In this document: piece after piece, positions 15,522 to 47,800 of the stretch | How the letters are laid out: each line of letters begins with the position of its first letter | How positions within the stretch are numbered: the stretch's first letter is position 1 | Virus record (IMG/VR): IMGVR_UViG_3300030107_004732 | Coordinates: 1 to 64,000 of that record | Length of the DNA stretch: 64,000 nucleotides | DNA from: a virus | Direction: 5' to 3' (one strand) | Program-made: the position numbers and the translations under genes | Notes under the pieces: generated by a model | The model's input: the letters and a program-made list of their open reading frames with translations, nothing else | The model's database searches: none | Told to the model about the DNA's origin: nothing

Positions 15522-17066
15522 TTATGTCCAAATAGCATGCGCTTCGGGCATTTCCCATTGCATACCAGCTTCAGTTAGAATCATATCTACTCTACGATCG
15601 ACACCTGAGTTCTCTAATGTTTGAACCCCTACGTAGACTGAAGTATCTCTGTTTAAACCATTACCAACAAGTGGACGATAAGCACAATGCTTCATGTTAA
15701 TACCAAGCATTTTAATTTGTGTGCTATCTAAGTGGATGTTTCTAGCCACATTCATATCACCATAAGGTGTTGCGAATGTAGTAATATCTACACCAAACAC
15801 TTTTTTCTTGCCAGTCATAGCGAAATCTGCTCTAAATTGACCAGATATGTGAACGTTGTTTTTAAAGTATCCACCTAATTTATGCATCCAGTTATAAACA
15901 GGAGTCGAAACAAAGAAAACTGTTGCTTGACTACTATTGTATCTAGGATCAACATAACTTGATAAATCATCTAAAAACATATCAGCTGTTTTAGTTCCAG
16001 TATCTAAACTAAAAGCATTACCATACTGAGTAATAAAATCAACCGCACCTTGAGTGTAGTTAACGCCATCACTATCAGTATATTGAGAACCAAATAATAA
16101 AGATTGCTCAATATCATATTTGTGCTCAACTAACTTTTCTTTCCAAACTCTAGCCCACTCATTTGGTTCATACTTCAAAATTGTTGCTCTAGACGTATTT
16201 GTCATAGCCATTGAAGTTTTCCATATTTGAGTCATGCCATAGCCTGTAGAGTATGGTTGATCTTTCCAAGTTTCTGGATAACCAGTACCTTCACCAAATG
16301 CTGTTCCAACTACATAACATCTTTTTCTTTCAAGAAAATCTGCAATTGAAAAACCTGAAACATCTATAGCATCTATAGCATTATTGTGAGCTACATAAGA
16401 TAATAACTCAGTTGCGCTAGATGTACCTTTGATTATTTTACATTTTAAGTTAGCAGCGTTTGATACTGAAGTAGTATCAACTTCCATAACTTTTGCAACT
16501 AAATAATCAGTAGGTGCAGTTGCAGTAGATGCACTTGAGTCATCCCAAGATCCACCGTTTGCACTTGTTGAGTGAGGTATTTTAATCATCTGACCTTCAA
16601 TGAAGAAAGCAGGCTGTGTGCCAGAATCTCCAGGTGAGATTTCGTTAGTAGAATTACCATATACATTCTGCAAATTACCTGCAGATTTGTAATCAGTAAT
16701 CATTGTAAAATAATAAATGTCACCAGCATCTACATCACCAGCAGTTACTAAAGCTGTTTTAGTACTACCATCTATTGATGCAGGAGCTGCTTGACCGTGA
16801 TTTGAAACATATGCATAACGCTTATGCCACGAAGGACGTTTCTCTGTGAACTTAAAAGAAGGATCATCAGTGGCTTTTTTAGATGCTTTTGCAAGAAATC
16901 TAAAAAAAGGATCTTGAGCTATTGCTAGTTCAGAAACCCTGTCACCAAAGTTAAACTTTCTTCGAAGATCGCCAGTGTCTAATCCCGTACCATGACGAGG
17001 ACCAGAAGATACACCATTCGTACTAACCGTATCTGAATATGTCTCTAGACTAAATGAGTCTGCCAT
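15522..17066 (-). CDS. Major capsid protein (HK97 fold)
   Basis: 514 aa after portal and scaffold; KATDDPSFKFTE, TQIWKTSMAMTNT, EHKYDIEQSLLFG, ILTEAGMQW..PEAHA match podovirus MCP patterns. Confidence 0.85.
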   Translation of the reverse strand: MADSFSLETYSDTVSTNGVSSGPRHGTGLDTGDLRRKFNFGDRVSELAIAQDPFFRFLAKASKKATDDPSFKFTEKRPSWHKRYAYVSNHGQAAPASIDGSTKTALVTAGDVDAGDIYYFTMITDYKSAGNLQNVYGNSTNEISPGDSGTQPAFFIEGQMIKIPHSTSANGGSWDDSSASTATAPTDYLVAKVMEVDTTSVSNAANLKCKIIKGTSSATELLSYVAHNNAIDAIDVSGFSIADFLERKRCYVVGTAFGEGTGYPETWKDQPYSTGYGMTQIWKTSMAMTNTSRATILKYEPNEWARVWKEKLVEHKYDIEQSLLFGSQYTDSDGVNYTQGAVDFITQYGNAFSLDTGTKTADMFLDDLSSYVDPRYNSSQATVFFVSTPVYNWMHKLGGYFKNNVHISGQFRADFAMTGKKKVFGVDITTFATPYGDMNVARNIHLDSTQIKMLGINMKHCAYRPLVGNGLNRDTSVYVGVQTLENSGVDRRVDMILTEAGMQWEMPEAHAIWT

Positions 17067-28016: not shown

Positions 28017-28096
28017 TCCTATACCAATGTTAACTTGCCCTTGGCTCATACCCAAGAAGGCGAGAGTCCTGAGATAACAACAGGTAAGGTATAGGA
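28017..28096 (+). ncRNA. Candidate small structured RNA (possible pseudoknot)
   Basis: 9-bp closing stem TCCTATACC/GGTATAGGA with nested stems. Confidence 0.4.
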
Positions 28097-28141
28097 GCGC
28101 ATTGCACGCATTGCAATACAACAATGAATAATGAAATAAAA

Positions 28142-28549
28142 TTGAGAGTTATGAAACAGGCCTGATCACCTGTGGATTAACGATGTGAAACCTGTAGAGC
28201 ATTCTGGTGAGGAGTGTGCAGGTAGACTGTTAGGTGTGACCGCTATAATATCAAGTGATGTTGTAGAACTAGTAGAGGCTAGAACAGTCGTAGAGCCAAT
28301 ATAAATGATAAGGGAATCCTTATCCAGTGGGTGTATATGTCTAGAGATAGACACTGAATACGGTAAGCAGGTCTTACATGAAAACAGATACACTATTTAG
28401 TCTATGGATTAACTACCCATATGTGACGACCTATCGGGGTAACCAGCCCTCATGGAGATAGGAGTAGCATACTTGATCACTCTTGTAGACGAAACACTGC
28501 CAATTAAAAATGGTATCTTGCGGGTGTCCCAAATCCCGCCACAACTCAA
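28142..28549 (+). ncRNA. Candidate large structured ncRNA (~410 nt, GOLLD/ROOL-class in size and style)
   Basis: No plus-strand ORF, raised GC, paired 5'/3' ends, at least 8 hairpins and long-range complementary segments. Confidence 0.6.
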
Positions 28550-30124: not shown

Positions 30125-30319
30125 ATGGATATATTTGAACTAGAAAAAAACAATGTAGTACTTAAAAGAACTGTAAGATACCTTGATGGTGAAATAAAAG
30201 AAATAGTAGAAAAACAAATATTAAGTAACCTAACCAAGATTGATAATTTCTTTGATGATTTAGAAAGAGAATATCAGTCTATTAACTCTTATGAAGAAGG
30301 AGGCCAAAATGGCAACTAA
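30125..30319 (+). CDS. Hypothetical protein, 64 aa
   Basis: TAATG-coupled to a 29-aa hydrophobic ORF (30036-30125). Confidence 0.6.
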   Translation: MDIFELEKNNVVLKRTVRYLDGEIKEIVEKQILSNLTKIDNFFDDLEREYQSINSYEEGGQNGN

Positions 30320-30527
30320 AACAATAAAATTTCTACAAGGTGGCGGCTTTGTAGAAAGACAAACTAACGCTGATACTGTTGAGCAATTAAGAAATGAATT
30401 TCCAGATGATATTAGTAATAATGCATCTGTTGCTGTTAATGGTGTTTCTGTAACTAACACTCATGCTATTGCTGAAGGTGATATTGTTGCAGCTGTTAAT
30501 AATAATAAGTCTGGCGGTGATCAGTAA
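30309..30527 (+). CDS. Ubiquitin-like beta-grasp protein (ThiS/MoaD-like), 72 aa, C-terminus KSGG-DQ
   Basis: VAVNG...IAEGDIV...GG pattern; AGGAGG RBS before the ATG at 30309. Confidence 0.85.
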   Translation: MATKTIKFLQGGGFVERQTNADTVEQLRNEFPDDISNNASVAVNGVSVTNTHAIAEGDIVAAVNNNKSGGDQ

Positions 30528-30536
30528 TTATTAACT

Positions 30537-30693
30537 TAAGGTGGTCGCTGGTCTCGAGACTAAAAGATAGATAGGCACTATTTAAAGCGCTATCTCCACC
30601 TTATAACTTATAGGGCTGTAGTGACAGGCGAGTCAATAACTGTAGCCAGCAATTGGCGTTATGTGAGACTAACGAGGGTCAATCAGCCCTATA
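30537..30693 (+). ncRNA. Two tandem structured RNA elements between the Ubl and E2-like genes
   Basis: Closing stems TAAGGTGG/CCACCTTA (30537-30603) and TATAGGGCTG/CAGCCCTATA (30609-30693). Confidence 0.45.
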
Positions 30694-30710
30694 TTAAACT
30701 TGGAGGGTTT

Positions 30711-32078
30711 ATGACAGATTATAGAGATTATGATTGCATTGTAGATGGCTCAATAGAACAATGCTTAGAAGAAATAGAAGTAGGAGATCTTGAAGAACAC
30801 ATTTATTATGGTCCTCAAGCAGACATAATGGAGAAATTACAAAGATTTAATGCTAGACACAGAGCCGATTTAGAAATTACTAAAACATTTAAATGGAAAC
30901 GTGGTTCTTATGAAAGAGTTGCTGAACTTATGATGAGAGGTCTTGGATTTAGAAGAAGGCCAAGTGGTATGTATAATTATTTACATAGAGAAGATTGGTT
31001 TAGAACTCATACCTGGGATTCAATTAAAAGCCAATTACAAGATATGGATTCTGACTTGTACAGGTTAAGAAATAATGGTGAAGTATGGTTAGATGATCCT
31101 TCTGTTCTTGTAGAAAGAAAAAATTTGTATTCTAATTATTTGATAGAAAAAGTAGAACTTGCTGATGAAATAATAGAAAATGTAGATATAATGGCTGAAA
31201 TGTATCATCAGTTATTTGTTCATCCAACATCACGCTCAAGTAGAAGATATATGCTAGTAACAACACTACGTATTACTCCAGATGTAATGAAAGTTTATGT
31301 AACTGAAGGTAGAAATAGTAATGAACCTGCTAAACATATAGAAAATATAGCTTGTGATACAGATGTATACTTAAATCTTATTACATATCCATTGCAAGTT
31401 ATGACAAGACATTCTAATTATGATAGGCCTTCAATTGATGTAAGTATTCTTGGTCAAGTTGAACAACCAAGCGATAAAGGATATTTATCATTTCCTTATA
31501 TTTCTGGTAGCAGAAACTACAGAGGCGGTTATTTTGGAAATAGTGTTTGCTTTGGTGACCAATCAACAGATGTGCATAATTCATTATATAGATATGATTT
31601 ACCATCTTTTGTATTGCAATGTATACCTTGGGCTACATCATATACTAATATGACACAACCACATAGCAACATTAAAATGATGTATCATGGTGAACCTAGC
31701 AGATTATCTGATGAATACAGATCAATATTTGGTACAAATACATCTAATATGTGTACTTACATACCAGATGGTGATAATGATTATTGTGATGTAAATGAAT
31801 GTGCTCTTAGACATAGTTGTACATTATATAAAGATGCACATCCTCAACCAGTAACACCAGAACAAGCTGAACAAATGACCTTACAATGGGCTACTAGAAT
31901 GGGTGGCGTTAATCACGCTGCTCCAACTATAATACACACAACTGATAATTCAGGCAATCCTGTAACTGTAACTAGAGATAGAACGTCAATGGAACAAGCT
32001 GCAGATGCTCAAGAACCACCAATACAAGGTGATCGTGAACAGTGGCCTGATGAATCACCACAAGGTGACGAAATGTAA
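30711..32078 (+). CDS. Prokaryotic E2-like (UBC-fold) conjugating protein with C-terminal Cys cluster, 455 aa
   Basis: FPYISG...GNSVCFGD resembles the HPN/PxV...GxxCxG E2 active site (Cys codon 31548-31550); C-x10-C-x4-C-x5-C cluster; lies between Ubl and JAB/E1. Confidence 0.6.
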   Translation: MTDYRDYDCIVDGSIEQCLEEIEVGDLEEHIYYGPQADIMEKLQRFNARHRADLEITKTFKWKRGSYERVAELMMRGLGFRRRPSGMYNYLHREDWFRTHTWDSIKSQLQDMDSDLYRLRNNGEVWLDDPSVLVERKNLYSNYLIEKVELADEIIENVDIMAEMYHQLFVHPTSRSSRRYMLVTTLRITPDVMKVYVTEGRNSNEPAKHIENIACDTDVYLNLITYPLQVMTRHSNYDRPSIDVSILGQVEQPSDKGYLSFPYISGSRNYRGGYFGNSVCFGDQSTDVHNSLYRYDLPSFVLQCIPWATSYTNMTQPHSNIKMMYHGEPSRLSDEYRSIFGTNTSNMCTYIPDGDNDYCDVNECALRHSCTLYKDAHPQPVTPEQAEQMTLQWATRMGGVNHAAPTIIHTTDNSGNPVTVTRDRTSMEQAADAQEPPIQGDREQWPDESPQGDEM

Positions 32079-32094
32079 CTTAAAAGGAGGAATA

Positions 32095-32238
32095 ATGGAC
32101 GCTAGAACTTCATACTTTAGTAATGAAATTAAAGACTTACAGTTTAAGTTTAAATCATTGCGTAATGATCATGAAACACTTAAAAAAGAATATAAAATAC
32201 TACAAAAACAAGTAAAAAAGCTCGAGGAGGGTAAATAA
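32095..32238 (+). CDS. Small coiled-coil protein, 47 aa
   Basis: AAGGAGG RBS; TAATG-coupled to the JAB gene. Confidence 0.7.
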   Translation: MDARTSYFSNEIKDLQFKFKSLRNDHETLKKEYKILQKQVKKLEEGK

Positions 32239-33209
32239 TGGAAATATTAATACATAAAGAATCTTGGGATAAGATTATAAATTATGCTAAAGCTGCTTAT
32301 GTCACAGAAAAAGCTGAAATAGGTGGTATGGCTGTAGTAACACAAGATAAAGATGGTGACTGGACTATTGAAAATCCAGTTATATTACCACAAGAAATAG
32401 CAGGGACTACGTGTGACCTAGATAAAGAAGAATTGGCTACGTATTATACTCAAATGGCTATGAAATACAAAGACCAGAAGTTTAGATTTTGTTGGTGGCA
32501 CAGTCATCACACAATGAACGCATTCTGGAGTGGTACAGATTTATCTAGCATTGATGAGTATGGTGAAGGTGAATCAGACGTTTCATTTGCACTTGTTGTT
32601 AATCTAAAAGAAGAATACAAATGTAGAATATCTGTATGGAAACCAGTAGAAATACATCAAGATGTAGAAGTTAAAATATTAGATGATACACCTGAAATAG
32701 AAATACCACTTGATATAGTTACAGAAGTTAAAGCTAAATGTAGAAAACGTACTTATGTAAGTTCTTATAAATCTGGTGGATCTGTATTAGAATCGCCAAA
32801 TAAAAAGCAGTTAGTAATTGGTCAAAATGGATTTGAAAGTAGTTATAATTGGGCTAAATATAGTTGGCTTGATGATGATTTAGAAAAAATTGTTACACCA
32901 CAAGAACAAACTAACTTTGAAGCTAAATGGGAATATGCGACTAATAAAATAACAGAGTTTATTAGACAATTTAATACAGGAGCTTGGAATATGCACAAAT
33001 ATAAATCTGCTGTAACTCATACAAATAAAATATTAGAACCATATGGGATTCAAATAGAAACATTAAACAAGCGTGAGTTAACAGAGTTTATTGAAATGGA
33101 TTCTGAACCATATGAACTGTTAACAGCTGATGATAAATATCATGATATAGCAGAAAGTTTAATAGATTGCGCATCTTATAATCAATCTTATGGAGGGTAT
33201 GGAATATGA
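32238..33209 (+). CDS. JAB/JAMM (MPN+) metalloprotease, deubiquitinase-like
   Basis: EIGG catalytic Glu and WWHSHHTMNAFWSGTD (HxH-x7-S-x2-D). Confidence 0.92.
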   Translation: MEILIHKESWDKIINYAKAAYVTEKAEIGGMAVVTQDKDGDWTIENPVILPQEIAGTTCDLDKEELATYYTQMAMKYKDQKFRFCWWHSHHTMNAFWSGTDLSSIDEYGEGESDVSFALVVNLKEEYKCRISVWKPVEIHQDVEVKILDDTPEIEIPLDIVTEVKAKCRKRTYVSSYKSGGSVLESPNKKQLVIGQNGFESSYNWAKYSWLDDDLEKIVTPQEQTNFEAKWEYATNKITEFIRQFNTGAWNMHKYKSAVTHTNKILEPYGIQIETLNKRELTEFIEMDSEPYELLTADDKYHDIAESLIDCASYNQSYGGYGI

Positions 33210-33859
33210 TAAATACTAGAAGCCAAGATATTGCAGATATATCAGGCATTAAGTTTCACATTGTAGGTTGCGGGGCTATTGGAAGCTCCGTAGCCACACA
33301 ATTAGTAAGACTTGGTGGCAATAATTTTGTTTTATATGATTTTGATAAAGTTGAAATACCTAATGTAGGTGTAAGTCAATATAATGAACAAGATGTAGGG
33401 CTATCTAAAGTAGGTGCTCTAACAAATCATATGAAAAAAATTAATGTAATGATTGAAATAGAGGGAATTGTTGATAAATTTAAATATTATCATGGAAATA
33501 AAGATGATATATTAGTATTAGGTTTAGATAGTATGTCTGCTCGTATGGAAATAGTTAAATTGTTAGCAAAATGCCCTTATAAACCATCATTTGTAATAGA
33601 TGGTCGTATGGGTGCAGAACAATATCAACAGTATATATATGATAATATTACTGTTAAACAATATGAAAAAGATTGGTATTCTGATGAAGATTCTGATCCA
33701 GAACCATGCACTCGTAAAGCTACATCTTACTGTAGTAATATGAGTGGAAGTTTTATATCTAATTCTATTAAGAACATAGTTATGAAACAGCCTTACTTTA
33801 AGGAAATAATTTTCAACTTTTCAACATTAATACTTGATAAAAAGAAATTAGTTTCTTAA
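33206..33859 (+). CDS. ThiF/MoeB/E1-family adenylating enzyme
   Basis: GCGAIGS, DFDKVEIPN, SKV, LDSMSAR, IDGRMG; candidate catalytic Cys in PEPCTRKAT; no CxxC Zn site. Confidence 0.93.
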   Translation: MINTRSQDIADISGIKFHIVGCGAIGSSVATQLVRLGGNNFVLYDFDKVEIPNVGVSQYNEQDVGLSKVGALTNHMKKINVMIEIEGIVDKFKYYHGNKDDILVLGLDSMSARMEIVKLLAKCPYKPSFVIDGRMGAEQYQQYIYDNITVKQYEKDWYSDEDSDPEPCTRKATSYCSNMSGSFISNSIKNIVMKQPYFKEIIFNFSTLILDKKKLVS

Positions 33860-35036: not shown

Positions 35037-35275
35037 TATAGGGAGGCAACAACTGGTCCTGTAAGTCGTAAATGACCTACTGAGGAAATTTCCGCAAAGG
35101 AATATGTGAGTCTCCCTATATAAAGATTTGGTAACAGTATAAAAACTCCCTAGATAGTACTCAGTTTACTATCTGACATTTCAGAAATCTAAATTCCATT
35201 AGATTCCGATTATTTGTTTATGAGTATATTTCATACGTGACTATTGCCTGGCTGGAAGTTGCAGGAGTTACCAAA
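35037..35275 (+). ncRNA. Two tandem multi-stem RNA elements
   Basis: Closing stems TATAGGGAGGC/GTCTCCCTATA (35037-35120) and TTTGGTAAC/GTTACCAAA (35127-35275). Confidence 0.45.
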
Positions 35276-35291
35276 AAATTAAAGGAGAATT

Positions 35292-35471
35292 ATGAGAGCG
35301 ACAGAATTTATGCATTTTATGAATAGAACAGATATAGGTTTAGGACAAAATCCTAAAGAAAGAGACTATACACACTATACCCCTAGAATGCTTGCAAAAA
35401 GAGCTAGATATGAGTATCAAAAGATGCTTAGAGAACAAAAAAAATTAAAGAAATCGGAGGAAAAAAAATGA
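35292..35471 (+). CDS. Small basic hypothetical protein, 59 aa
   Basis: AAGGAG RBS; ATGA-coupled to a 34-aa hydrophobic ORF (35468-35572). Confidence 0.65.
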   Translation: MRATEFMHFMNRTDIGLGQNPKERDYTHYTPRMLAKRARYEYQKMLREQKKLKKSEEKK

Positions 35472-35558
35472 TAGAAATAATACTTATAAGTTTATCAATA
35501 TTTATATTAGCTGTAGGAACTTTAATACTGTTAATAAAAAGTGAAGTGGAGAATATAC

Positions 35559-37322
35559 ATGGAGATGATTAAAGAAATAGCATTTGGAGTTAGTAATAGA
35601 GGTAATTTTCAATCTAAAGATGAAGTTTGTGAGTTACAAGGCACTGACACTGATCTATTTGTGTCTTTATATGACTATGATGAAACAGTTGTAGCATATT
35701 ATAGTAAAAAAGGAAGTTTATCAGGATTTGATGGTAACATATATATGCCTACAGAATTTATATTAGACGTTGATGGATCTAGTATAAGAAATGCTAGAGA
35801 TAAATTAATAGGTTTATCAGATATATTAGATGATTGCAATCTATACTATAGAATATATTTTAGCGGAACAGGTTTTCATGTTGGTATACACAATTCAGCA
35901 TTTAAATGGGAACCAAGTCCTAATTTACACGTAAGAGTAAAAGAAGAGCTAACTAAAGCTGGTATCTATAAATTTGCAGACCCCTCTGTTACTGATAAAA
36001 CAAGAATAATAAGACTAGTTAATACTAAAAATACTAAATCTGGATTATATAAAATCTGTATAGAAGATAACTTACAAATATTATCTTCGTCAGATAAAGT
36101 GTTTAAAGAAGAGCTGATTAAATTAGCATCAGAACCTAGAAACATAGATTACGAAGATATTGAATTGAGTAGCCCAGTATTTGATGTAAGAGATAAAGAA
36201 AAACCTGAAGAAAAACCTGAAATTAAGGTAAGAAATAAGCGTGATCCTGTTGCTAACACTTGTATACAGAAAATGTTAGATGGTGCTCCACACGGTAAAC
36301 GTCATATGGTCGCTCTTAGAATAGCATCTCATTTAAGATGGAACTTTCCAGAAAATATTGTAAGATTAATTATGGAAGATTGGCGCATTAGAGTTAACGA
36401 AGGTGCTAAAAGCGAGTTTAAAAAAGAAGAGATGGATGGTATAGTAGAAGGTTGTTATACTGGTCATGATGGACAAGGTTACAGATATGGTGCTGATGAT
36501 CCAGTTATACAGTTTTATTGTAACTCTAAATGTACGTTACACAGAGGTGCTAAAGCCGAAAACATGATGGATTCAAGTAGTATGGAAGATGAATTAATAA
36601 ACTTTTATGCTCAAGACTTAAAACCACTTAATTTAGGTGAGCCATATGATATGAATTTCCCTATATATCCAGGTGAAACAGTCATTATTCAAGCTCCACC
36701 TGCAAGTATGAAGACTATGTTGCTTCAAAATTGGGTAAATTATTTTAAAAGACCAACATACTTTGTTGAAATGGAAATGTCTCCAAGGCAAATATGGTCT
36801 AGATTTGTTCAGATAGAAATGGGGTGGGATGAAAATCAATTAGCTAATCATTACAAACAAATGAAAAATGGTATGGATAAAAGATTTGAATGGTTAACTG
36901 TAGACTATTCAGCTCCATATGCGCATGAATTAGAAAGAAGAATCACCAGCCTACCTGTTAAGCCAGAAATAGTAATTGTTGACCATTTGGGGCTATTTAA
37001 GAGCAAACAGAAAGATAATAACATGAAAGTTGAGGAAGCTAGCCAAGCAATTATGGAATTAGCTGTAAGACAAAATGTGATCGTCTTTGCTGTAAGCGAA
37101 GTATCTAAAGCTGCCTTTAAAGAAGGTATGGACATATCTTCATCTAGAGGTTCATTTAGAATTGCATATAATGCAAATAAATTAATATCTTTAAAGCCAT
37201 ATAAGAACAAAGAAACAGGTCTTGTTGAGCTTATAGATATTAAATCAGATAAAAACAGAGAGAAAGAACATCTGTACGCTAGATTAACAGTTAATAACGT
37301 AAGAATAGAAAAGGAGGGCTAA
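35559..37322 (+). CDS. Primase-polymerase (AEP) fused to DnaB/RecA-like helicase
   Basis: LDVDG, FSGTGFHV, RIIRLVNTKN AEP motifs; PriCT-like region; APPASMKT Walker A variant, EMEMS, IVIVDHL Walker B. Confidence 0.85.
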   Translation: MEMIKEIAFGVSNRGNFQSKDEVCELQGTDTDLFVSLYDYDETVVAYYSKKGSLSGFDGNIYMPTEFILDVDGSSIRNARDKLIGLSDILDDCNLYYRIYFSGTGFHVGIHNSAFKWEPSPNLHVRVKEELTKAGIYKFADPSVTDKTRIIRLVNTKNTKSGLYKICIEDNLQILSSSDKVFKEELIKLASEPRNIDYEDIELSSPVFDVRDKEKPEEKPEIKVRNKRDPVANTCIQKMLDGAPHGKRHMVALRIASHLRWNFPENIVRLIMEDWRIRVNEGAKSEFKKEEMDGIVEGCYTGHDGQGYRYGADDPVIQFYCNSKCTLHRGAKAENMMDSSSMEDELINFYAQDLKPLNLGEPYDMNFPIYPGETVIIQAPPASMKTMLLQNWVNYFKRPTYFVEMEMSPRQIWSRFVQIEMGWDENQLANHYKQMKNGMDKRFEWLTVDYSAPYAHELERRITSLPVKPEIVIVDHLGLFKSKQKDNNMKVEEASQAIMELAVRQNVIVFAVSEVSKAAFKEGMDISSSRGSFRIAYNANKLISLKPYKNKETGLVELIDIKSDKNREKEHLYARLTVNNVRIEKEG

Positions 37323-39136: not shown

Positions 39137-41839
39137 CTAAAAGTCTTGTAGAGAAGAAAGTATTTGCAAGAGTTCCTCTTCTGAGTACTTCTTCTCTGCC
39201 TTTGATTTCTTAGTTTCTTTAGGGGTAAAATATGTAGATACAGGTTCTGGCATATATTTCTGAAGAGGCATTAATAAAGCATCTTTATAACCTGAAAGTT
39301 CAGGAGTGCCATATAAACCTAATTCTTGTCCTAATAATGTAGGTACACCAGTACCATTTATAGATCTAGGTACAGTTGAGTAAATAAGTCTTCCAATCTG
39401 AGTATTTAAAGTTCTTACTATTTCTTCAGTAGAGTCAGTATTGTGTCTTTCATGGAATTTGATATAACCATTTGAATAAGTTGTCCATTCAGGTCCACCC
39501 ATTTTCATAAAATTAGTAGCAGTTCCTATTCTTATTATATCACTTACAAAAGGACCACCAAATGTTCCAGTAATAGGATCTAATCCAAAAAAGGCTTTCT
39601 TTTTAGCTTCTTCATCGCCAGTTAAATATTCTCTTAACCTAATACCTCTTTCTAAAGTATCGTTTTGTACTAAATTATTAAAATTAGTATTTGTTAAAGC
39701 AGATAACCCTGTTATAAAAGTATATAACATACCCAATCTATATAATCTCCAAGCTTCAGGACTGTTCCATTCTTTAGCAAGTATATCATTACCACCTTTT
39801 TTAGCTATCTTAGCTTGATAGTTAAAGAAATTAATAGCATAAGTTGAAAACTGACCTAAAACAGAACCTACAGGGCTTTTTGTTATATTTGGTTTAGCAA
39901 ACCTATCATATTGATAGTGAAGCTCTTTAACCATTGCTGCTCCATAATTAGAAGCTTTTTTTATAATTTGCCTTTCTACTTCAGGAGTAATATCCATTTC
40001 TGAATCTTTAGATTTTTTTAAGGTCTTTCTTAATAATTCTTGATTACTTTTTAAATCTCTATATTTAGTCATAAATGCAATCTTAAATGTTAAACCCCTA
40101 TTTATTTTATTTTCAACCCACTGCATAGGTTTACCAGTTATCCTTGCAGTATTTTCCATCCAATCATTTATTTTACTAGCAGCAGTTGGACCTTTTTCTA
40201 TAACTCTACCTTCTGGAGTAACTTCTAAATGTGCCATCAAATCTCTAGGCATAGCAAGTTCTTGTATATTAACAAATTCGAAACCATGTCTTTTCATTTC
40301 ATTGTCAACAATAGTTTTCATAGATTCTGATTGCAAATCTTTCATAGCTGTATATATACCTTTATGACCAAAATATACCCAATTTTGTAAAGACTGGGTA
40401 GCATTTCTGGCAGCAGATCTTATATTTAATCCTAATTTAGACATAAATTGAAATGATGTAATAGCTTGAGAAAAATGAGCAAGTTTACTATCTCTAAATT
40501 TTGTGCCTAAAACAGCCTCATGTGTATCACCTATATAGCCTGCTAAGAACTGTAAATGTTGATCATAATCTTTTCCTTCTAATCTTCCCAACTCTTTTAA
40601 AGCATTAGTAGTTTCTTTTGTAACTCTTGCATTATAATTAAATCTTATAACATTATTTGAAAATGTATCAAGAAGACCTATAACATCTTTATTTTGAAAG
40701 TCAAACCTTCCAGATTTCTTTTCAAACGATAAACTAGGCATATTTAAATTGTCAGCTATATTTTTTATCATAGTACCCATATATCCGCTAACATCTTTAT
40801 AATTTGTATTTACTTTACCAGAAAACATATCTTGACTAAATTTAGCAAATGTAGGAGCTATATCTAATACTTGTGTTGGAAAATAATCTTTAGGTTTTTT
40901 AGGAGGGGGAATTTCTTTACCATTTTTCTTTGTATAACGAAAATAATCATTATATAAATTTTCTAATCTTTTTACCTCAAAACCTACACCATTAAACTCA
41001 TTTTTATGAGATTCTAAAACTTTTATATAATCTAATATACCATTACCTAATACTTTCCATAGTCTATCTTTTAATGGTGCTATATTTTGAGCAGGTTTAC
41101 CATTATGCCAAAGATTAACAGCTTCTACTACTTCAGGTCCATATTTTAATTTTGCTGCATCTAAATCCTGTTTTTTAAACTTACTAGGATCTAGCATCAA
41201 ATCATATAAAGCATTATTAATAGCCATTTGAGATTCAGGATCTACATTTTCAAGCCACTTTTTAGCATAAGCGTCAGCCTCTTCAACTTTGCCATCTTTC
41301 ATTAACTTTTCATGAGTAATTTGGTGTTTTTTTAACTCTTCTTGAACTTTATTTCTACCATAACCATACTTTCTCATAAACCCTGTATCACCCATAGCTC
41401 TGTTTAAAGAGTTTTTTATAATAGCTAAATCACTACCTATAGTTTGTAAATTACCATGATAGTAATTACTAGCTTGAACTAAATTATTAAAGTATTTCTT
41501 AGTAATGGGGTTTTTAGATAAAACATTTTCAGGAAGATTAAACAGTTTACCTAAAGTTGTAGGCTTTTTTTCTAATCCATTTAAAAACTTTGTTACATGC
41601 TTATCTAACTTATTTAACTCTTTAGCGTTTGGAAGTCTACTAAACTCAAAATCTAAATTAGGAAGTATTTCGTTAAATACTCTTTCAAATTCATTAGATC
41701 TACCACCAGTCATAGCTTTTATAATTTTATTATCCATCCATTTATCAACAATACCATTTAATCTATTAGCTCTATCTTGTTCACTAGCTTTGACATTTAA
41801 AGGATTTAAACATTTAACAGCCATCGACTCTTCCTCCAA
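39137..41839 (-). CDS. Large internal virion / ejected protein, about 900 aa
   Basis: Helical, KLGLNIRSAARNATQ and FSTYAINF motifs typical of large polyvalent virion proteins; follows the vRNAP. Start may be 41824. Confidence 0.6.
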   Translation of the reverse strand: MEEESMAVKCLNPLNVKASEQDRANRLNGIVDKWMDNKIIKAMTGGRSNEFERVFNEILPNLDFEFSRLPNAKELNKLDKHVTKFLNGLEKKPTTLGKLFNLPENVLSKNPITKKYFNNLVQASNYYHGNLQTIGSDLAIIKNSLNRAMGDTGFMRKYGYGRNKVQEELKKHQITHEKLMKDGKVEEADAYAKKWLENVDPESQMAINNALYDLMLDPSKFKKQDLDAAKLKYGPEVVEAVNLWHNGKPAQNIAPLKDRLWKVLGNGILDYIKVLESHKNEFNGVGFEVKRLENLYNDYFRYTKKNGKEIPPPKKPKDYFPTQVLDIAPTFAKFSQDMFSGKVNTNYKDVSGYMGTMIKNIADNLNMPSLSFEKKSGRFDFQNKDVIGLLDTFSNNVIRFNYNARVTKETTNALKELGRLEGKDYDQHLQFLAGYIGDTHEAVLGTKFRDSKLAHFSQAITSFQFMSKLGLNIRSAARNATQSLQNWVYFGHKGIYTAMKDLQSESMKTIVDNEMKRHGFEFVNIQELAMPRDLMAHLEVTPEGRVIEKGPTAASKINDWMENTARITGKPMQWVENKINRGLTFKIAFMTKYRDLKSNQELLRKTLKKSKDSEMDITPEVERQIIKKASNYGAAMVKELHYQYDRFAKPNITKSPVGSVLGQFSTYAINFFNYQAKIAKKGGNDILAKEWNSPEAWRLYRLGMLYTFITGLSALTNTNFNNLVQNDTLERGIRLREYLTGDEEAKKKAFFGLDPITGTFGGPFVSDIIRIGTATNFMKMGGPEWTTYSNGYIKFHERHNTDSTEEIVRTLNTQIGRLIYSTVPRSINGTGVPTLLGQELGLYGTPELSGYKDALLMPLQKYMPEPVSTYFTPKETKKSKAEKKYSEEELLQILSSLQDF

Positions 41840-44800
41840 CTTTACTATTTGTTATATTTTTTAATCTTTCAGCTCCGCCTGCAGGTGGATCTACAGGTAA
41901 ATTTTCATATGGTGCTCTTTGAGGAACTTTTCTTGGTCCTCCATAAGTTAAATTTTGTTTAGAAGCATCACCAAGCATAATTTGATAACCATTTTCTACT
42001 GCTTTTAAATAGCTTTGACCACCATTAATAGCTCCATATTTAGTAGCACCAACAAACTCAGGTATATAACCAACAGGCATATAGTGTAAGAAACTAGCTT
42101 TAGCCATTTCAGAAGCAAAACTTGGTAATAAAGGTTGAGAAGACATATAATAAGCTACATTTTTATTAGCATTTTCAAATCCAAATAAAGAAGAAACTCC
42201 AGGATTTATATGTCTTTGTTGAAAACTAGGCGACCAACTTTCAAAACTAAACTGAGCAATATCATCAACTAAAGGAAACCCTCTAAATATATCATGTTTT
42301 GCATTTGCAGCATTTGTCATAGTATTATGAACTATTGTACCTCTTTCACCAGGTAATCCATAAACTGCTCTTAATGAGTTGTTTACATGCCCTGAAAGAT
42401 GTGTAAATATCATGTCTTTTTGAAATTCTGTAATTAATTTAGAATCAGCGCTAGATATAAAGTTTAACCCTAATCTAATCATAGATAAGCTTTCTTTCTT
42501 AAAAGAAGGAGTTAAACGATCATGTAAATATGTAAATTTAAAAGGCTCTACTTCTGGAGACATAAGTTTCCATAATAATAGCTGCCCATATCCACCCTCA
42601 GATTGATATTTAGTATATAATCTTTCTAATCTATCCATAATAACAGTATTAGAACGAGTATTATCCATATACCATTCTTGCCCATTAAAGTTCTTTTTCC
42701 AAGTTTCTCTATAAAACTTTTTAAAATCTTTTACATCTTTCTCAAATTGCTTAGAAAGTTCTTTATTTGTAATATTTTCATTTATAAATATTTTGTTATA
42801 TCTATCAAAAGCATTAAACCATATAAGTCTTTCTATTTGATCTACAGAACTAACACCTTCAACACGAACAACGTTATTTTTTGAAATGTATTTATTTAAA
42901 GCATTATCGTTTCTTTTAGCCCAAGAACTTACTGTTGCATAATCAAAAGAGTCAGGTAAAGGACCTTCAGCCCAACCTTTAGGAGCTTTTCTGTCTTTAA
43001 TCATATCATCAATCAGTTTTCTTTTTGAAGCTTCTCTTATACCTTTAGCCCAAGGAACAGATTGTCCAGAACCTGATAAAACCATTTGCTTTTCTATTTC
43101 TCTTTTTTGATTTTTAAGTTGAAAAATATCCTCAGTTAAATACTCTATATATTGTTTATCACCTTTACCATAAGCATTAAATCTAGCTTTTTGTTGACTT
43201 CTTATTCTATAGTCTAAATAGTTAACGTAATTAAGATATTTGTTATTTTGATTTAATTCTTTCATAAACTCTGAAGCTACTGTACTAAAATCTTCAGAAT
43301 ACATACCTTTTTCACTAAACTTTTTAAATTCAGTAAGCATTTCCCCGCCAATTCTACCAGGGTTTTGAAGTCTCATATTATCATGATAACTAACAACAGA
43401 CATAGCTCTTTCAAATGGAAGTTGATTATCCATCCACTGAGTTGTTGCTTTGTTATCTCTAGCAAAATTTGGCCTTATAGAATTGCCATAATTACCAAAT
43501 ATATTAACAATATTATTTTGGTTATCTCTGAACATTCTATTTACTTCACCCTTATCTTGCTTACTTAGGCCCTTTGTTTTCATTGCTTTCCAATATGCAT
43601 ACTGAGAAAGATTAGCCATTTGATTATCAAAAGTAGTAGTTTGGGTTATTATATCATCATAACTTATTTTTTCTCTTTTACCACTAGAAAATTTACCAGT
43701 TGCTAATCCTAATAAATGTTGATAAGGAGCTATAACTGCTTTAATAACTGCTTTTTCTGCATTAGTAAATGTATGACCTGTATCTTCTGGTAACCATTTA
43801 TTTTTAAATTTACCAGAATCATTATAAATTGCTTTACTAAATATACCGCTATAACCATGCTCACTATCTCCAAACAAAACTCTATCAAACCACATATCAT
43901 TGTATTTTTCAGCATTATAACCTTGTCTAGAATCAGTAATGTTTTGTATATCTGTAGCTAATTTATCTATAGTCTTTTCAATTTTAACAGGATCAACATA
44001 TAACTTTCCACCACCATCAGCATTCCTTAATCTCATAGCGAAACCAGCAAAATCTGATTTTGTTTCTGGATTAAAAACACCACCAGAATTATAATGTTTT
44101 AAAGCATTTAATATCCTAGGAGTTTTAACTATTACCCCTCTTAATCTTTGAGCAGCATAATCACTAGCATAAAACTTATTCATAGAAGAAGCGTCTAAGA
44201 ATGACAGATTTTTAGGTAGACTTGTTTTTTGGTTTACTCCATCAGGATTAACTCTTATAACTCTACCAGATAAAGCATTCCATTCTCTTACAACTTCAGT
44301 AGGAGCATTCCACCAAAAATCTAATTTATCAACATCAAAATCACCTTCATGTCTCATAGCAAAATCATAAGCATTTAATTTGACTTGATTACCGTAATCT
44401 TCAGTAAGTATTTTTTTAACACCTATAGCACTTACATCACCTGGTCTTGTATGTGGGTTTCTTCTAAAGTTTGCCATAACTTGATAATTTTTATTACCTT
44501 CTATCTTTTTTACAACATCAGATAATTTGTCGCCTTTAACAATAGATTCATTACCTGTTTCTTTTATAAATTGCTTTAAATCTATAAGATCATCTTGACC
44601 TTTTGGATTTCTTTTTATAAAATGTAAATTTCCTAAATCAACTTCTTTTTGTCCAGCTCTATATGGTAGTTCAGCTTCACCATAAGTATTTACTTCTCTA
44701 CTTCCATTATCCATTTCTCTAAAAGTAGTATAAAGTAATTTTTCACCTGGACTAACAACTGATTGACCACCTAATTCAGTTTTCATACTTAGTATACCAG

Positions 44801-47800
44801 GTTTATCAATAAGATTAGATTTTAATTGATTTCTAAATTGATTAGCAAATGTTGATATTTGAGGTAATCCATTATTTTTAATCCATCTATTATAAGAAGA
44901 AGCATTATCTTGGACTTTCATATTTTCCATTAAATACTTACTATAAGCCAATCCATCAACTAAATTGTTAGAATCAAACTTTTTGTCAGACTCTTTAATT
45001 AAATTCTCTAAACTTCCCCTTAAAAGCCAATTAAACGCCTTATTTGATGCAGATCCACTTAAATGGTTTAATGCAGAATGAGATATTGTGGCGCTGTGGT
45101 CAGCGTTTACTATAGAGCCAATAGAAATATCTTCACCTTTAAGCAACTCTAAATGAGCTTCTCTAAAATCTTTTATTTTTTTACTACTACCTTTTAAATT
45201 AAGGTTGATTAAATCATCAAAAGTTTCCCAATCTTCAAATATTTTTTCTCTATTTTTTATTTTTGTTGCGCTTTCAAACATTACAGCATCAAGACCATTC
45301 TTTTTTAACATAGGATTTAATCTAGGGTCTGCTATAAATGCTGTTTTACCTATAATAACATTATTTCCAACTCTATGTACAATAGGTTTTATTCCGCCTA
45401 AACCAGGAGTATTTGCTGCTCCTGCTAAAGCGTAAAGACCTTGCATAGCTTCTGTACTAACCGCCATATAAGAATCATATTTACTTACTTCTCCGCCACC
45501 TGCCCAAGTTCTTCCACCTTCACCAAATTCATTAACAATTTTACTATCATATTTAAGTTCTGAATCAATTTGCTCTTTTAATTCTTGAAGTATATTAGCG
45601 CTTCTACCTTTTTTTAATTCTCCATTTTTAAACATTTCGTCAGCAACAACAATAATTTCTAGCCCACCATTCTTTTTGATTCTTTCTAAACCTTTCATCA
45701 TTTCAGGGTTTTGTTTTTTACTTATATTGTGGTTGTTATAAAACTCAAATGTTTCTTTTATATAATCAGTAGACATTTCTTTCATAGCAGTATTAGCTAA
45801 AAGTCTTAATCTACCAGCATATTTAGCCGTGGCTTCTGCTCCCTCTGTTTTCATATGTTCCCAAAAATTCTTACCCATATTTTTGTCCATAAACATAAAT
45901 GTAAACATAGTTTGTAATCTTTCAGACTGAATTGTAGCATCAGGTAAATCCCATTCATATTCAAATTTACCAGTTCCCTCATTTTTTTCATTTAAGATTT
46001 CTTTTTTAGATTTAGTAGACGATTTTAATAGCCCCTCTAAAGATTCAAAAACACTATTAGGTACATCAGGATTATCTTTTTTCCATTTTTCTAACTTTTT
46101 CTCAAACTTTTCAAGAATCTTAGGAATATTTTCTCTTTTAACACCTATTCCCCAAGAAAGATCAGCAAGTCTAATCATAATATGACCGCCTGTATTTTCA
46201 TGAGCGAGAACACCCCATTCATCTGTTCTAAGATTTTTGTCTATACTAGTTTTAGATAAGGCAACACGATTAATGATTTCGTTCATCATATTAGCATTAT
46301 CACGAGCATTTATAAGTTTGTTATTTTTTCCCGCAACAACCATATCAACTATAGAGAAAGAATCTTTTCCAAAAATATCTATTATTTCTCTAAATACATG
46401 GTTATCCATAACTGTATGTCTAAAATCAGTATGGACACCGTATCCTTCTGATACAGATAATCTATGAACATTTATTTGGCTTCTTGAACCTAAAATTAAT
46501 TGTTGAACATCATTCATCAACTCAAATTGTTGGTTGCTATCCATATCTTCAAACTTTAATTCTTTATTATTTTTATCATAAAGTATAGCATCATTTATAA
46601 GCTGTTCTCTAGTAGTGTTTTTTGTAAACTCATAATCTTTTTCCAAGCCATATTTTTGTTTAAATGCATCTCTTGTCACAGATTGATACATGTCAATATC
46701 AGAAGCTTTACCCATAGCGCTTCTATAATAATTTACTTGAGATTCTAAATTAGCAATTTCTACGCCTTGTGCTATATCAAATTTTGCCTTATCATAAATT
46801 TCTTGCATATCTTTTTTAAGATTTTTATTCAAAGGATCAAGAGCCAATTCATCTTTAACTATATCATAATAACCTTTTTTTCTTAAAGCTTCTATAATTT
46901 CATTAGAATTAACTGATTTATTTCCATACATCTGATATATATAGTGTATCATTTCTCTTGTTTCTGAGTCAAATTTAGAATTGTTTTTTATAGCCCCTAA
47001 TTGCTTTAAGAAATTATCATGAAGCATATTATTCATATCTTTTCTGACAGCTGTTAATTGACTTATCATTTCATGCAATTGAGAAGGTGTAACAGAAGCT
47101 ACAGTAGATGTAGTTTTTATAAAACCTGTCTGTTTCCCATCTTTCATTTGAACTAAATAGGGACTAATTAAATCTTTGTAATTTCTAAATAACTCAGCAG
47201 CTAAAAATTGTTTTTCAATACCCAATTCAACAGATAGTTGTTCAAATAGTTTATCCATAGTTGGCTCTTTATCAAAGATAGTATCTATTACTACTCTCCA
47301 GCCCTTACCCATTTTATTTTTACTATTTAAATCTAATTTTTTTAAGTCTATATTATTTACTTTAGATGACATTTGATTTATAACGCCAATTAATTCAACC
47401 ATATCCATATTAGGAGTTAACATTTTAAAATCCAAAAGCTTAGATAAAACTTTTCTATCAGTAGAGTTTAATATACTTCCATCTCTTTTTGTTGCTCCTT
47501 TAAAGAATTGATCCATAGCTCTTTCTTGATAAATAGCTTTGAACATATTAGATTCTGTCATATCTCCAGTGCTAAACATAGTTTCCATACCATTGTTTCT
47601 AAACACTCTTCTTAACTCTTTAATATCTCTTATTTGTTCTTGAGTAAATTTAACTTTAGAACCTGTATTATCTAATATTCTTTGTTCATAATTAGGATCT
47701 GTTCTTAATATAGATAATAAACTATTTACAAATCTTGCTTCTGCCCCTGATAAACCTTTTGTGCTAAATTCAGAAATTAAAACACTATCATTGCCTATAA

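Follow-up and report, generated by a model that had tools for sequence, protein, structure and literature searches.

A candidate ubiquitin-like conjugation cassette in an uncultured ocean phage and its relatives

Background

Work on prokaryotic cascades that combine a ubiquitin-like protein (Ubl) with an activating enzyme (E1), a conjugating enzyme (E2) and a JAB peptidase has to date described them as means of host immunity, namely in type II CBASS, Bil and Bub. Here we describe a gene set with candidates for all four components that is carried by a virus. It lies on the plus strand at positions 30309-33859 of IMG/VR record IMGVR_UViG_3300030107_004732, an uncultured ocean phage whose record of 85,245 bp is rated 100% complete and whose first 64 kb form the window. 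With a probability that we put at roughly 55%, this cassette encodes a Ubl conjugation cascade owned by the phage, consisting of a minimal E1, an unclassified, oversized E2-like protein family, a ThiS-like Ubl precursor (pro-Ubl) and a JAB peptidase.

Bil (BilABCD; class 6d of Iyer et al. 2006) is a host-encoded anti-phage system, its E1 BilD is built from IAD, AAD and CYS domains and its Ubl is ISG15-like. The present cassette, however, is encoded by the virus, its E1 is a single adenylation domain of 217 amino acids (aa) and its Ubl is a ThiS-like domain of 72 aa. Unlike in Bil, the E2-like protein is large (455-650 aa), includes additional modules and is matched by none of the E2 sequence families. 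CBASS Cap2/Cap3 resembles the cassette in its minimal E1 of the homodimer type, the adjacent JAB and the non-canonical E2, and Cap2 is matched by our E1 in the PDB (E 1.2e-4). However, Cap2 is a fusion of E2 and E1, whereas here the two are separate genes with the JAB gene between them, and the CBASS E1 activates a CD-NTase, whereas the phage cassette contains a dedicated Ubl. Bub (formerly 6E/DUF6527) is likewise a diverged Ubl-E2-E1-(JAB) set with E2s that lack C-terminal helices. It works through oxyesters on a tyrosine of the E1 and a serine of the E2 and employs the serine protease BubE, whereas both candidate residues are invariant cysteines here. Since neither the E1 architecture of Bil, nor the E2-E1 fusion of CBASS, nor the Ser/Tyr chemistry of Bub is found, we set the cassette apart from these three systems. 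Among described systems, Bil and type II CBASS nevertheless come nearest to it, with Bub next.

The systems SAMP/UbaA/HvJAMM1, ThiS-ThiF, MoaD-MoeB and CysO-Mec+ share with the cassette a Ubl with Gly-Gly, a minimal E1 and a JAMM peptidase. They have sulfur partners and no E2, whereas here a UBC-like protein with an invariant cysteine is present and the genome contains no sulfur partner. Among phages, TAPI (Ubl) and TAPK (JAB and NlpC) of lambda and T1 form a Ubl and JAB pair, in which the JAB is predicted to cut after the last glycine; in the papers considered here, this is the sole phage pairing of the kind. This pair belongs to a tail module without E1 or E2 and its Ubl is not conjugated, whereas the present cassette lies in a replication module together with an E1 and an E2-like protein. 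Gene sets of Steigviridae and of the phage FpV4 share the gene order of the cassette; the major capsid protein gives no sign that the window phage itself is crAss-like. A literature search, with subscription journals and supplements beyond its scope, gave no description of a phage E1/E2/JAB/Ubl cascade and no link of crAss-like phages to ubiquitin or ThiF, and term searches in Yutin 2021 and in the jumbo-phage review PMC7824862 returned nothing relevant.

Results

The cassette comprises five co-oriented open reading frames (ORFs), which were all located where a preliminary description of this DNA, made from the sequence alone, had placed them. Each of them has a ribosome-binding site (RBS) of the AGGAGG/GGAGG type 4-7 nucleotides (nt) upstream. 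They encode, in this order, the Ubl, the 455-aa candidate E2, a 47-aa coiled-coil protein, the JAB peptidase and the E1. As had also been noted, the last three are coupled by overlaps, with TAATG at 32238 connecting the 47-aa ORF to the JAB gene and ATGA at 33206 connecting the JAB gene to the E1 gene.

The gene set is kept in related viruses. A search with the 455-aa protein yielded 47 proteins and 21 IMG/VR loci (designated L numbers below). By tblastn with the other window proteins, the Ubl was located in 19 of these loci, compared with 18 for the JAB and 16 for the E1. The loci in which a gene was missed, L010 and L022 in the case of the Ubl and L004, L009, L011, L017 and L020 in that of the genes further downstream, or their contigs, end before the gene would come. 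Because every miss is a locus end and no counter-example exists, the gene set is not a product of chance, and the expectation that the genes co-occur in relatives holds for Ubl, JAB and E1 in all loci that reach far enough. A distant phage, L026, was reached via a family member with about 20% identity. It encodes a Ubl with 34% identity, a 615-aa member of the E2-like family, a JAB and an E1, followed by an AAA_24 ATPase, a protein of the 178-aa type also found near the cassette and a primase-helicase. Locus searches with the distant family members P0054, P0060, P0160 and P0074 gave nothing, and P0094 alone gave loci. Pattern scans for the 455-aa family and the Ubl across 185,579 prokaryote species, each represented by a single genome, revealed no relative, although these scans used one or two peptide patterns, which distant relatives would escape. 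In 50,697 phage records, blastn with the cassette and tblastn with the 455-aa protein found no match, and tblastn with the JAB found a single one (8e-4).

The Ubl gene (30309..30527, +) encodes 72 aa of ThiS/MoaD-like character with the C-terminus ..NNNKSGG-DQ. Against Pfam ThiS the protein scores 20.2 bits (E 9.2e-4), below the cut-off of 22.5 bits. At E<=0.1, ThiS is matched by nine of the 20 proteins of the family (6.4e-5 for the best of them), and in the PDB the family reaches MoaD alone (E 0.73). In a protein language-model atlas the Ubl adjoins viral clusters labelled ThiS (score 0.92), which we treat as a lead only, and one source labels a family member molybdopterin converting factor subunit. 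Of the earlier assignment to a Ubl family, the Gly-Gly end stands, and the family match itself stays under its threshold. The motif NK[ST]GG is kept in all 20 aligned members. It is followed by unrelated tails of 1-17 residues, for instance C, CK, DQ, RSC, SVDLLITIK or SHFCILTSNDLALKYTK, and all 18 close copies that were read end in ..NNNKSGGDQ. Since an invariant Gly-Gly followed by variable tails is the pattern of modifiers that are exposed by a peptidase, the Ubl is, judged by this pattern, a pro-protein, and the diglycine described earlier is both invariant and masked. The JAB encoded downstream would be the obvious candidate for removing the tail. Across close loci the Ubl is 88-97% identical, compared with 75-85% for the E1, 65-84% for the JAB and 43-77% for the 455-aa protein, and in 19 of 19 loci it is the best conserved of the 14 proteins compared.

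The candidate E2 (30711..32078, +) comprises a helical N-terminal part, a UBC/UEV/RWD-like centre, a cysteine cluster and an acidic, disordered tail. The RBS and the lengths of the homologues favour the ATG at 30711 over the GTG at 30621 as its start. The protein has no match in Pfam, NCBIfam, PHROGs or PADLOC, and the profile of its diverse family retrieved nothing but coiled-coil noise from the PDB. When 1.84 billion representative proteins were searched with a profile of 41 close homologues, 390 clusters (50% identity) were retrieved at E<=1e-3, 214 of them at E<=1e-10, which makes this a large and diverse family; its members mostly have 420-650 aa. The window sequence itself is present in BFVD under a UniProt accession and is thus public, if unnamed. 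In an alignment of 53 diverse members, which apart from four close ones are 17-26% identical to the window protein, C280, P317, G327, C348, C359 and C364 are invariant. G34, P35, Q36, N47, T57, W62, G65, P262, W307, N319, P329 and C370 are nearly so, with C370 kept in at least 90% of the members. The candidate active-site residue C280 (codon 31548..31550) is invariant in the 41 close homologues as well and lies in the consensus HPYIS-(about 15)-VCxG. E2 enzymes carry an HPN...C signature, which this consensus as a whole recalls.

An AlphaFold2 model of the 455-aa protein, built from the 41-sequence alignment, reaches a predicted local distance difference test (pLDDT) score of 76.5; from residue 100 to residue 310, blocks score 80-96. 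It begins with helices, which extend to residue 125 or so, and continues with a long helix, a meander of five strands and further strands, followed by the C280 loop, two helices, a low-confidence stretch rich in cysteines and the disordered acidic tail. Residues 126-335 (31086..31715) modelled alone, with 16 sub-ranges from the relatives' loci, gave a pLDDT of 72.8. In the models, Cys280 is located in a loop after the beta-meander and just before a helix, and this loop has a pLDDT below 50 in the domain model. VIA-align of the 455-aa models gave matches to RWD, UBC and UEV chains. In a VIA wide search with the domain model, 29 of 50 rows were titled E2/UBC, UEV, UFC1 or RWD and 10 rows were other things. 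Foldseek alone gave no match, neither for the whole protein nor for the domain. On the basis of these models, the central domain is a candidate for a UBC/UEV/RWD-type alpha/beta fold. For the E2-like cysteine motif proposed in the preliminary description, there are thus an invariant cysteine and a UBC-like model, and no match to an E2 sequence family. The cluster C348-x10-C359-x4-C364-x5-C370 (31752..31820), whose region has low model confidence (block means 57-70), could be a metal site.

Two further suggestions concerning this protein found no confirmation. A link to Prok-E2_D in the language-model atlas (cluster score 0.85, 39% of members) was left unconfirmed by a negative Pfam scan of the 53 members. 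The sequence QWATRMGG near the C-terminus, considered as a second diglycine site, reads RMGM in L026 and is unconserved in the diverse alignment. The surrounding segment EQAEQMTLQWATRMGG (31866-31910, residues 386-399) is invariant in the close clade and precedes the variable acidic tail; in L026 the site reads ..LQNRMGM...

The JAB/JAMM metallopeptidase (32238..33209, +) has 323 aa, of which a catalytic domain of about 145 aa is followed by a C-terminal half. Its Pfam scores lie below the cut-offs (Prok-JAB: E 2.2e-4, 21.5 bits versus 25; JAB: E 3.1e-4, 21.0 versus 22.5), and PADLOC JAB matches residues 2-145 at 4.6e-7. The motif H88-S-H90-x7-S98-x2-D101 (32499..32540) is complete, in agreement with the earlier view of an intact JAMM protease. 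H88, S89, H90, S98 and D101 are invariant in all five proteins aligned, those from the window, L026, FpV4 (gp51), crAss001 (gp77) and the bajarodcaudo homologue, and a candidate for the upstream glutamate of JAMM is present as well (KAEIGG).

The E1 gene (33206..33859, +) encodes 217 aa consisting of a ThiF/MoeB-type adenylation domain only. Pfam ThiF (PF00899) is matched with 68.9 bits (cut-off 28.1; E 4.7e-19) and PADLOC E1-E2 at 2.9e-16, on the E1 half of CBASS Cap2-type proteins. In the PDB, UBA5 is matched better (1.1e-7) than Cap2. The best NCBIfam matches are ThiF equivalogs, with the ThiF and MoeB scores all far below the equivalog cut-offs. In six aligned E1s (from the window, L026, L019, FpV4, crAss001 and bajarodcaudo virus), R5, G21 and G23 (GxGxxG), D45, K68, D108 and R113 are invariant, residues whose roles we take to be those of their MoeB/ThiF counterparts. 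C168 (codon 33707..33709) is the sole cysteine invariant in all six. It follows the IDGR strand and, by this place, presumably belongs to the crossover loop as in ThiF/MoeB, which makes it the candidate for the thioester cysteine proposed earlier. No CxxC pair exists among the four cysteines of the protein, and a second adenylation domain, a CYS domain and a ubiquitin-fold domain are absent. Because of its single adenylation domain it resembles the homodimeric ThiF, MoeB and Cap2 types and not BilD.

Similarly arranged genes exist in cultured phages. With the E1 as query, tblastn found 80 phage records, comprising 29 of Bacteroides, 29 of Flavobacterium, 12 'uncultured' and a few weak others, and the strong matches (6e-13 to 9e-20) belong to the Crassvirales family Steigviridae and to phages of Flavobacterium psychrophilum. 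The eight neighbourhoods inspected (crAss001, FpV4, bajarodcaudo virus 1, cr128_1, cr106_1, cr85_1, cr111_1 and DAC15) all have the same gene order, namely primase, a small protein of about 200-290 aa, a protein of about 370-444 aa, one of about 365-423 aa, the E1, and then UDG and recombination genes. The sets, gp79-gp76 in crAss001 and gp53-gp50 in FpV4, are annotated only as 'ThiF', 'metalloprotease' or hypothetical. In the JAB slot, the JAMM motif was found in crAss001, FpV4 and bajarodcaudo virus, a metalloprotease domain is annotated in four others, and the DAC15 protein is unannotated. For the JAB, homology is supported in the region of the motif (BLASTP 5e-5 and 2e-6).

The small proteins share an N-terminal module of about 90 aa that closes with an invariant K-x3-S-G and a subsequent G or A, and this Ubl-like module carries a C-terminal extension of 130-200 aa. 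In cr106_1 (L030, 171-1374) an HNH endonuclease gene is inserted in the gp79-like gene just past K-S-G, leaving a 92-aa Ubl-like ORF that ends in ..KSGKF and a separate C-terminal part; since the insertion separates the module as an ORF of its own, it marks the module boundary. Profile comparison of the window Ubl with the gp79-like N-termini (hhalign E 0.041 with thin profiles; E 0.0035 and probability 9% with fuller ones) is suggestive of homology, and a PDB search with these N-termini gave nothing relevant. The proteins of about 370-444 aa keep an invariant Y-x-H-S-H ... C-x-G pattern. Between gp78-like proteins and the 455-aa family, BLASTP was non-significant, and hhalign gave probabilities below 1% with a single sequence and of 0.35% with an eight-member alignment. 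The 455-aa model has weak structural matches in BFVD to a CrAss-like virus protein (0.54), a 420-aa entry (0.69) and a cr128_1 protein (0.51), and the 420-aa entry corresponds to FpV4 gp52 by length alone. Judged from these comparisons, the arrangement is shared, and homology is evident for two of the four components, E1 and JAB.

Between the 455-aa gene and the JAB gene lies a hot spot of accessory genes. The window carries here the 47-aa ORF (32095..32238, +), a variable accessory gene whose product matches coiled-coil/leucine-zipper families only, as the preliminary description had noted. Comparable ORFs occupy the slot in four of the 12 relatives examined (L007, L010, L015 and L016), and the others hold different genes. 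In five relatives the slot contains a protein of 287-289 aa with CEYKCSYCY, a CxxxCxxC motif of the radical-SAM type (L004 3486-4349, L013 2032-2901, L014 2708-3577, L018 7318-8187, L021 7416-8285). Also in five relatives, a conserved protein of 83-100 aa (MSFVTENSMKAHYKRLSCRTIKIN...) is encoded just 5' of the JAB gene, where the window has the 47-aa ORF instead (L002 3409-3693, L010 1563-1814, L013 2979-3230, L014 3655-3939, L019 5670-5972). In three copies the C-terminus consists of ..YGG and two more residues (..NIYGGPK, ..NIYGGEK, ..RMYGGVK), and the other two terminate before this point. By its sequence, this protein could be a second substrate of the JAB or the E1.

The Ubl gene is separated from the 455-aa gene by a spacer of 183 nt (30528..30710, +) with a conserved stem-loop core. 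The core of about 32 nt, AATAACTGTAGCCAGCAATTGGYGTTATGTGA, is almost identical at the same position in L026 (5907-6000), with different outer stems (GGGCTG/CAGCCC in the window, GAGAGCC/GGCTCTC in L026). The spacer folds with a single-sequence z of -1.89. RNAalifold across seven loci gave no supported consensus (seven pairs, none compensatory), and the closer relatives L005, L006, L007 and L019 lack the core here. In three marine metatranscriptome runs from three studies, 42%, 27% and 6% of the cassette's sampled words were recovered, and contigs cover parts of the Ubl, 455-aa, JAB and E1 genes at a depth of 2-6. This is compatible with transcription of the cassette, DNA carry-over in the runs is possible, and gaps in the coverage carry no information. 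A non-coding stretch at 28024-28545 reaches a contig depth of 12-40 in three studies, about ten times that of the cassette, with letters resembling Illumina adapters at contig ends. Further downstream, one contig from the RNA libraries lacks 649 nt (35067 to 35717), and in a second one 28 other letters stand in place of 182 nt (35121 to 35304). Both probably reflect differences among strains in the spacer that separates the 178-aa gene from the gene of the primase-helicase.

The cassette belongs to a plus-strand block from about 25 to 39 kb and is directly followed by genes for an Erf-type annealing protein, a 178-aa protein and a primase-helicase fusion. The block is flanked by two minus-strand blocks, which encode terminase, portal, capsid and several giant ORFs. 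One of these (41814-50792, -; 2,992 aa) has no PHROG match. The layout had suggested a crAss-like genome, an assignment that we dropped, since the major capsid protein has no Crassvirales match and the terminase falls elsewhere. The major capsid protein (15522-17066, -) has one weak match among the 50,697 phage records, to Polaromonas phage Tiera (6e-5), and the best terminase matches, with about 25% identity, are ICP2-like and roseophage terminases. The phage represents a lineage without a cultured relative in this collection. A marine Bacteroidota host is hinted at by the fact that all cultured carriers infect Bacteroidota and by the low G+C content of the window (about 32%).

Discussion

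From the gene set, the motifs, the synteny, the family sizes and the fold likeness we infer every chemical step of the cascade as well as its target. The JAB would trim the pro-Ubl past its Gly-Gly, after Gly70. The E1, presumably a homodimer like ThiF, MoeB and Cap2, would adenylate the exposed Gly70, and the Ubl would probably be taken onto the invariant Cys168. It would then pass to Cys280 in the UBC-like domain of the 455-aa protein and from there to a target chosen by the helical N-terminal part and the C-terminal cysteine cluster of the same protein. Because these extra modules would choose the target, no separate E3 would be needed. A reversal of the tag by the JAB is possible as well. 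The preliminary description had proposed a conjugation pathway of Ubl, E1, E2 and JAB, and this proposal is supported in part, by gene set, motifs and synteny, and left without backing by the E2 sequence families.

Two observations weigh against a phage-owned conjugation cascade, both concerning the candidate E2. None of the 53 diverse members of the 455-aa family matches a described E2 family of Pfam (UQ_con, Prok-E2_A-E) at E<=1, and the likeness of the central domain to the UBC/UEV/RWD fold is middling (Z about 6). Both would fit a system that is independent of an E2, in which the E1-activated Ubl is attached directly or takes part in another acyl transfer. Archaeal SAMP/UbaA and Urm1 attach a Ubl without an E2. 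In that case, the 455-aa protein would be a substrate, a scaffold or an unrelated cysteine or metal enzyme of DNA metabolism whose likeness to E2s would go no further than a widespread alpha/beta arrangement. The top ranks of the fold comparison include non-catalytic RWD and UEV domains, which points in the same direction. Moreover, no homology to the 455-aa family is detectable for the gp78-like proteins that occupy this slot in crAss phages, for which reason the slot may hold lineage-specific partners. However, a single cysteine is invariant across 53 members with about 20% identity, in a motif and at a position like those of an E2 active site, and wherever a locus extends far enough, the 455-aa gene is tightly syntenic with the Ubl, JAB and E1 genes. 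An H-S-H ... C-x-G pattern is invariant in the gp78-like family too, and three such proteins are weak structural matches (probability 0.5-0.7). Taking both sides together, we hold an attachment without an E2 to be unlikely.

Less likely again is a role of the Ubl as a sulfur carrier, which would be thiocarboxylated by way of the E1 with sulfur from the host and would deliver this sulfur to a small molecule, a nucleoside or newly replicated DNA, with the JAB unmasking or recycling the carrier. The only library and PDB links of the Ubl are ThiS and MoaD, one family member bears the name of a molybdopterin converting factor subunit, and the E1 is of the minimal MoeB/ThiF type with ThiF equivalogs as its best library matches. 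Operons of JAB, ThiS and E1 with sulfur chemistry are known, and Iyer 2006 describes Mec+ with CysO and PdtG in PDTC synthesis (operon classes 4a-4d). On the other hand, the complete genome encodes no partner enzyme and the E1 has no rhodanese fusion. Searches for MoaE, ThiG, Rhodanese, Aminotran_5, ATP_bind_3 and PALP found none of the six in the whole 85,245-bp record, although the same searches found them in 11-14 of 14 control genomes and a ThiF control detected the cassette E1 once in the genome (1.4e-20). This agrees with the absence of sulfur-partner genes stated in the preliminary description and lowers the probability of a sulfur carrier, even though host enzymes could supply the sulfur. 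Furthermore, the UBC-like protein with its invariant cysteine is always present, and the NCBIfam ThiF and MoeB scores are below the equivalog cut-offs.

It is improbable that the cassette is a decoy or eraser directed against host Ubl immunity (Bil, type II CBASS), with the JAB stripping conjugates and the Ubl and E1 titrating or mis-loading host enzymes, a role that would be compatible with a conjugation mechanism and is suggested by the best PADLOC matches of JAB and E1 (CBASS-type JAB and E1-E2) and by the known reversal of such conjugates by host JAB peptidases, because a cascade of four genes exceeds the needs of an eraser and both its constant location near replication genes, seen in three lineages, and the extreme conservation of the Ubl are unlike fast-turning anti-defence genes.

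If the cassette is a conjugation cascade, its target is most likely a phage or host protein of DNA metabolism, since in three lineages it always lies among replication and recombination genes, with primase, helicase, Erf or exonuclease, UDG and resolvase genes as neighbours. A wider proposal, which we regard as speculative and doubtful, is that phages of Bacteroidota, from ocean podovirus-like to crAss-like ones, own a Ubl system made of virus-only families that tags a replication or repair protein. Its parts would be a pro-Ubl, a minimal E1, a JAB and an oversized E2 that includes its own targeting module, and the system would act within the replication and recombination programme. Eukaryotes control replication factors by SUMO and ubiquitin, and the use by the phages would be comparable to this.

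Conclusions

Gene sets of similar arrangement occur in the cultured pairs crAss001/Bacteroides intestinalis, DAC15/B. thetaiotaomicron and FpV4/Flavobacterium psychrophilum, and for this reason the question is open to bench work. Among the cultured carriers are members of the crAss order, the most abundant phage order of the human gut, in which these genes are still labelled 'thiamine biosynthesis protein' or 'hypothetical'. A conserved cascade owned by phages, if true, would turn round the picture of such cascades as host immunity and would represent a new class of viral take-over or self-regulation. Ubl tagging would then be an invention or a possession of viruses in the prokaryotic world as well, and not only a host defence.

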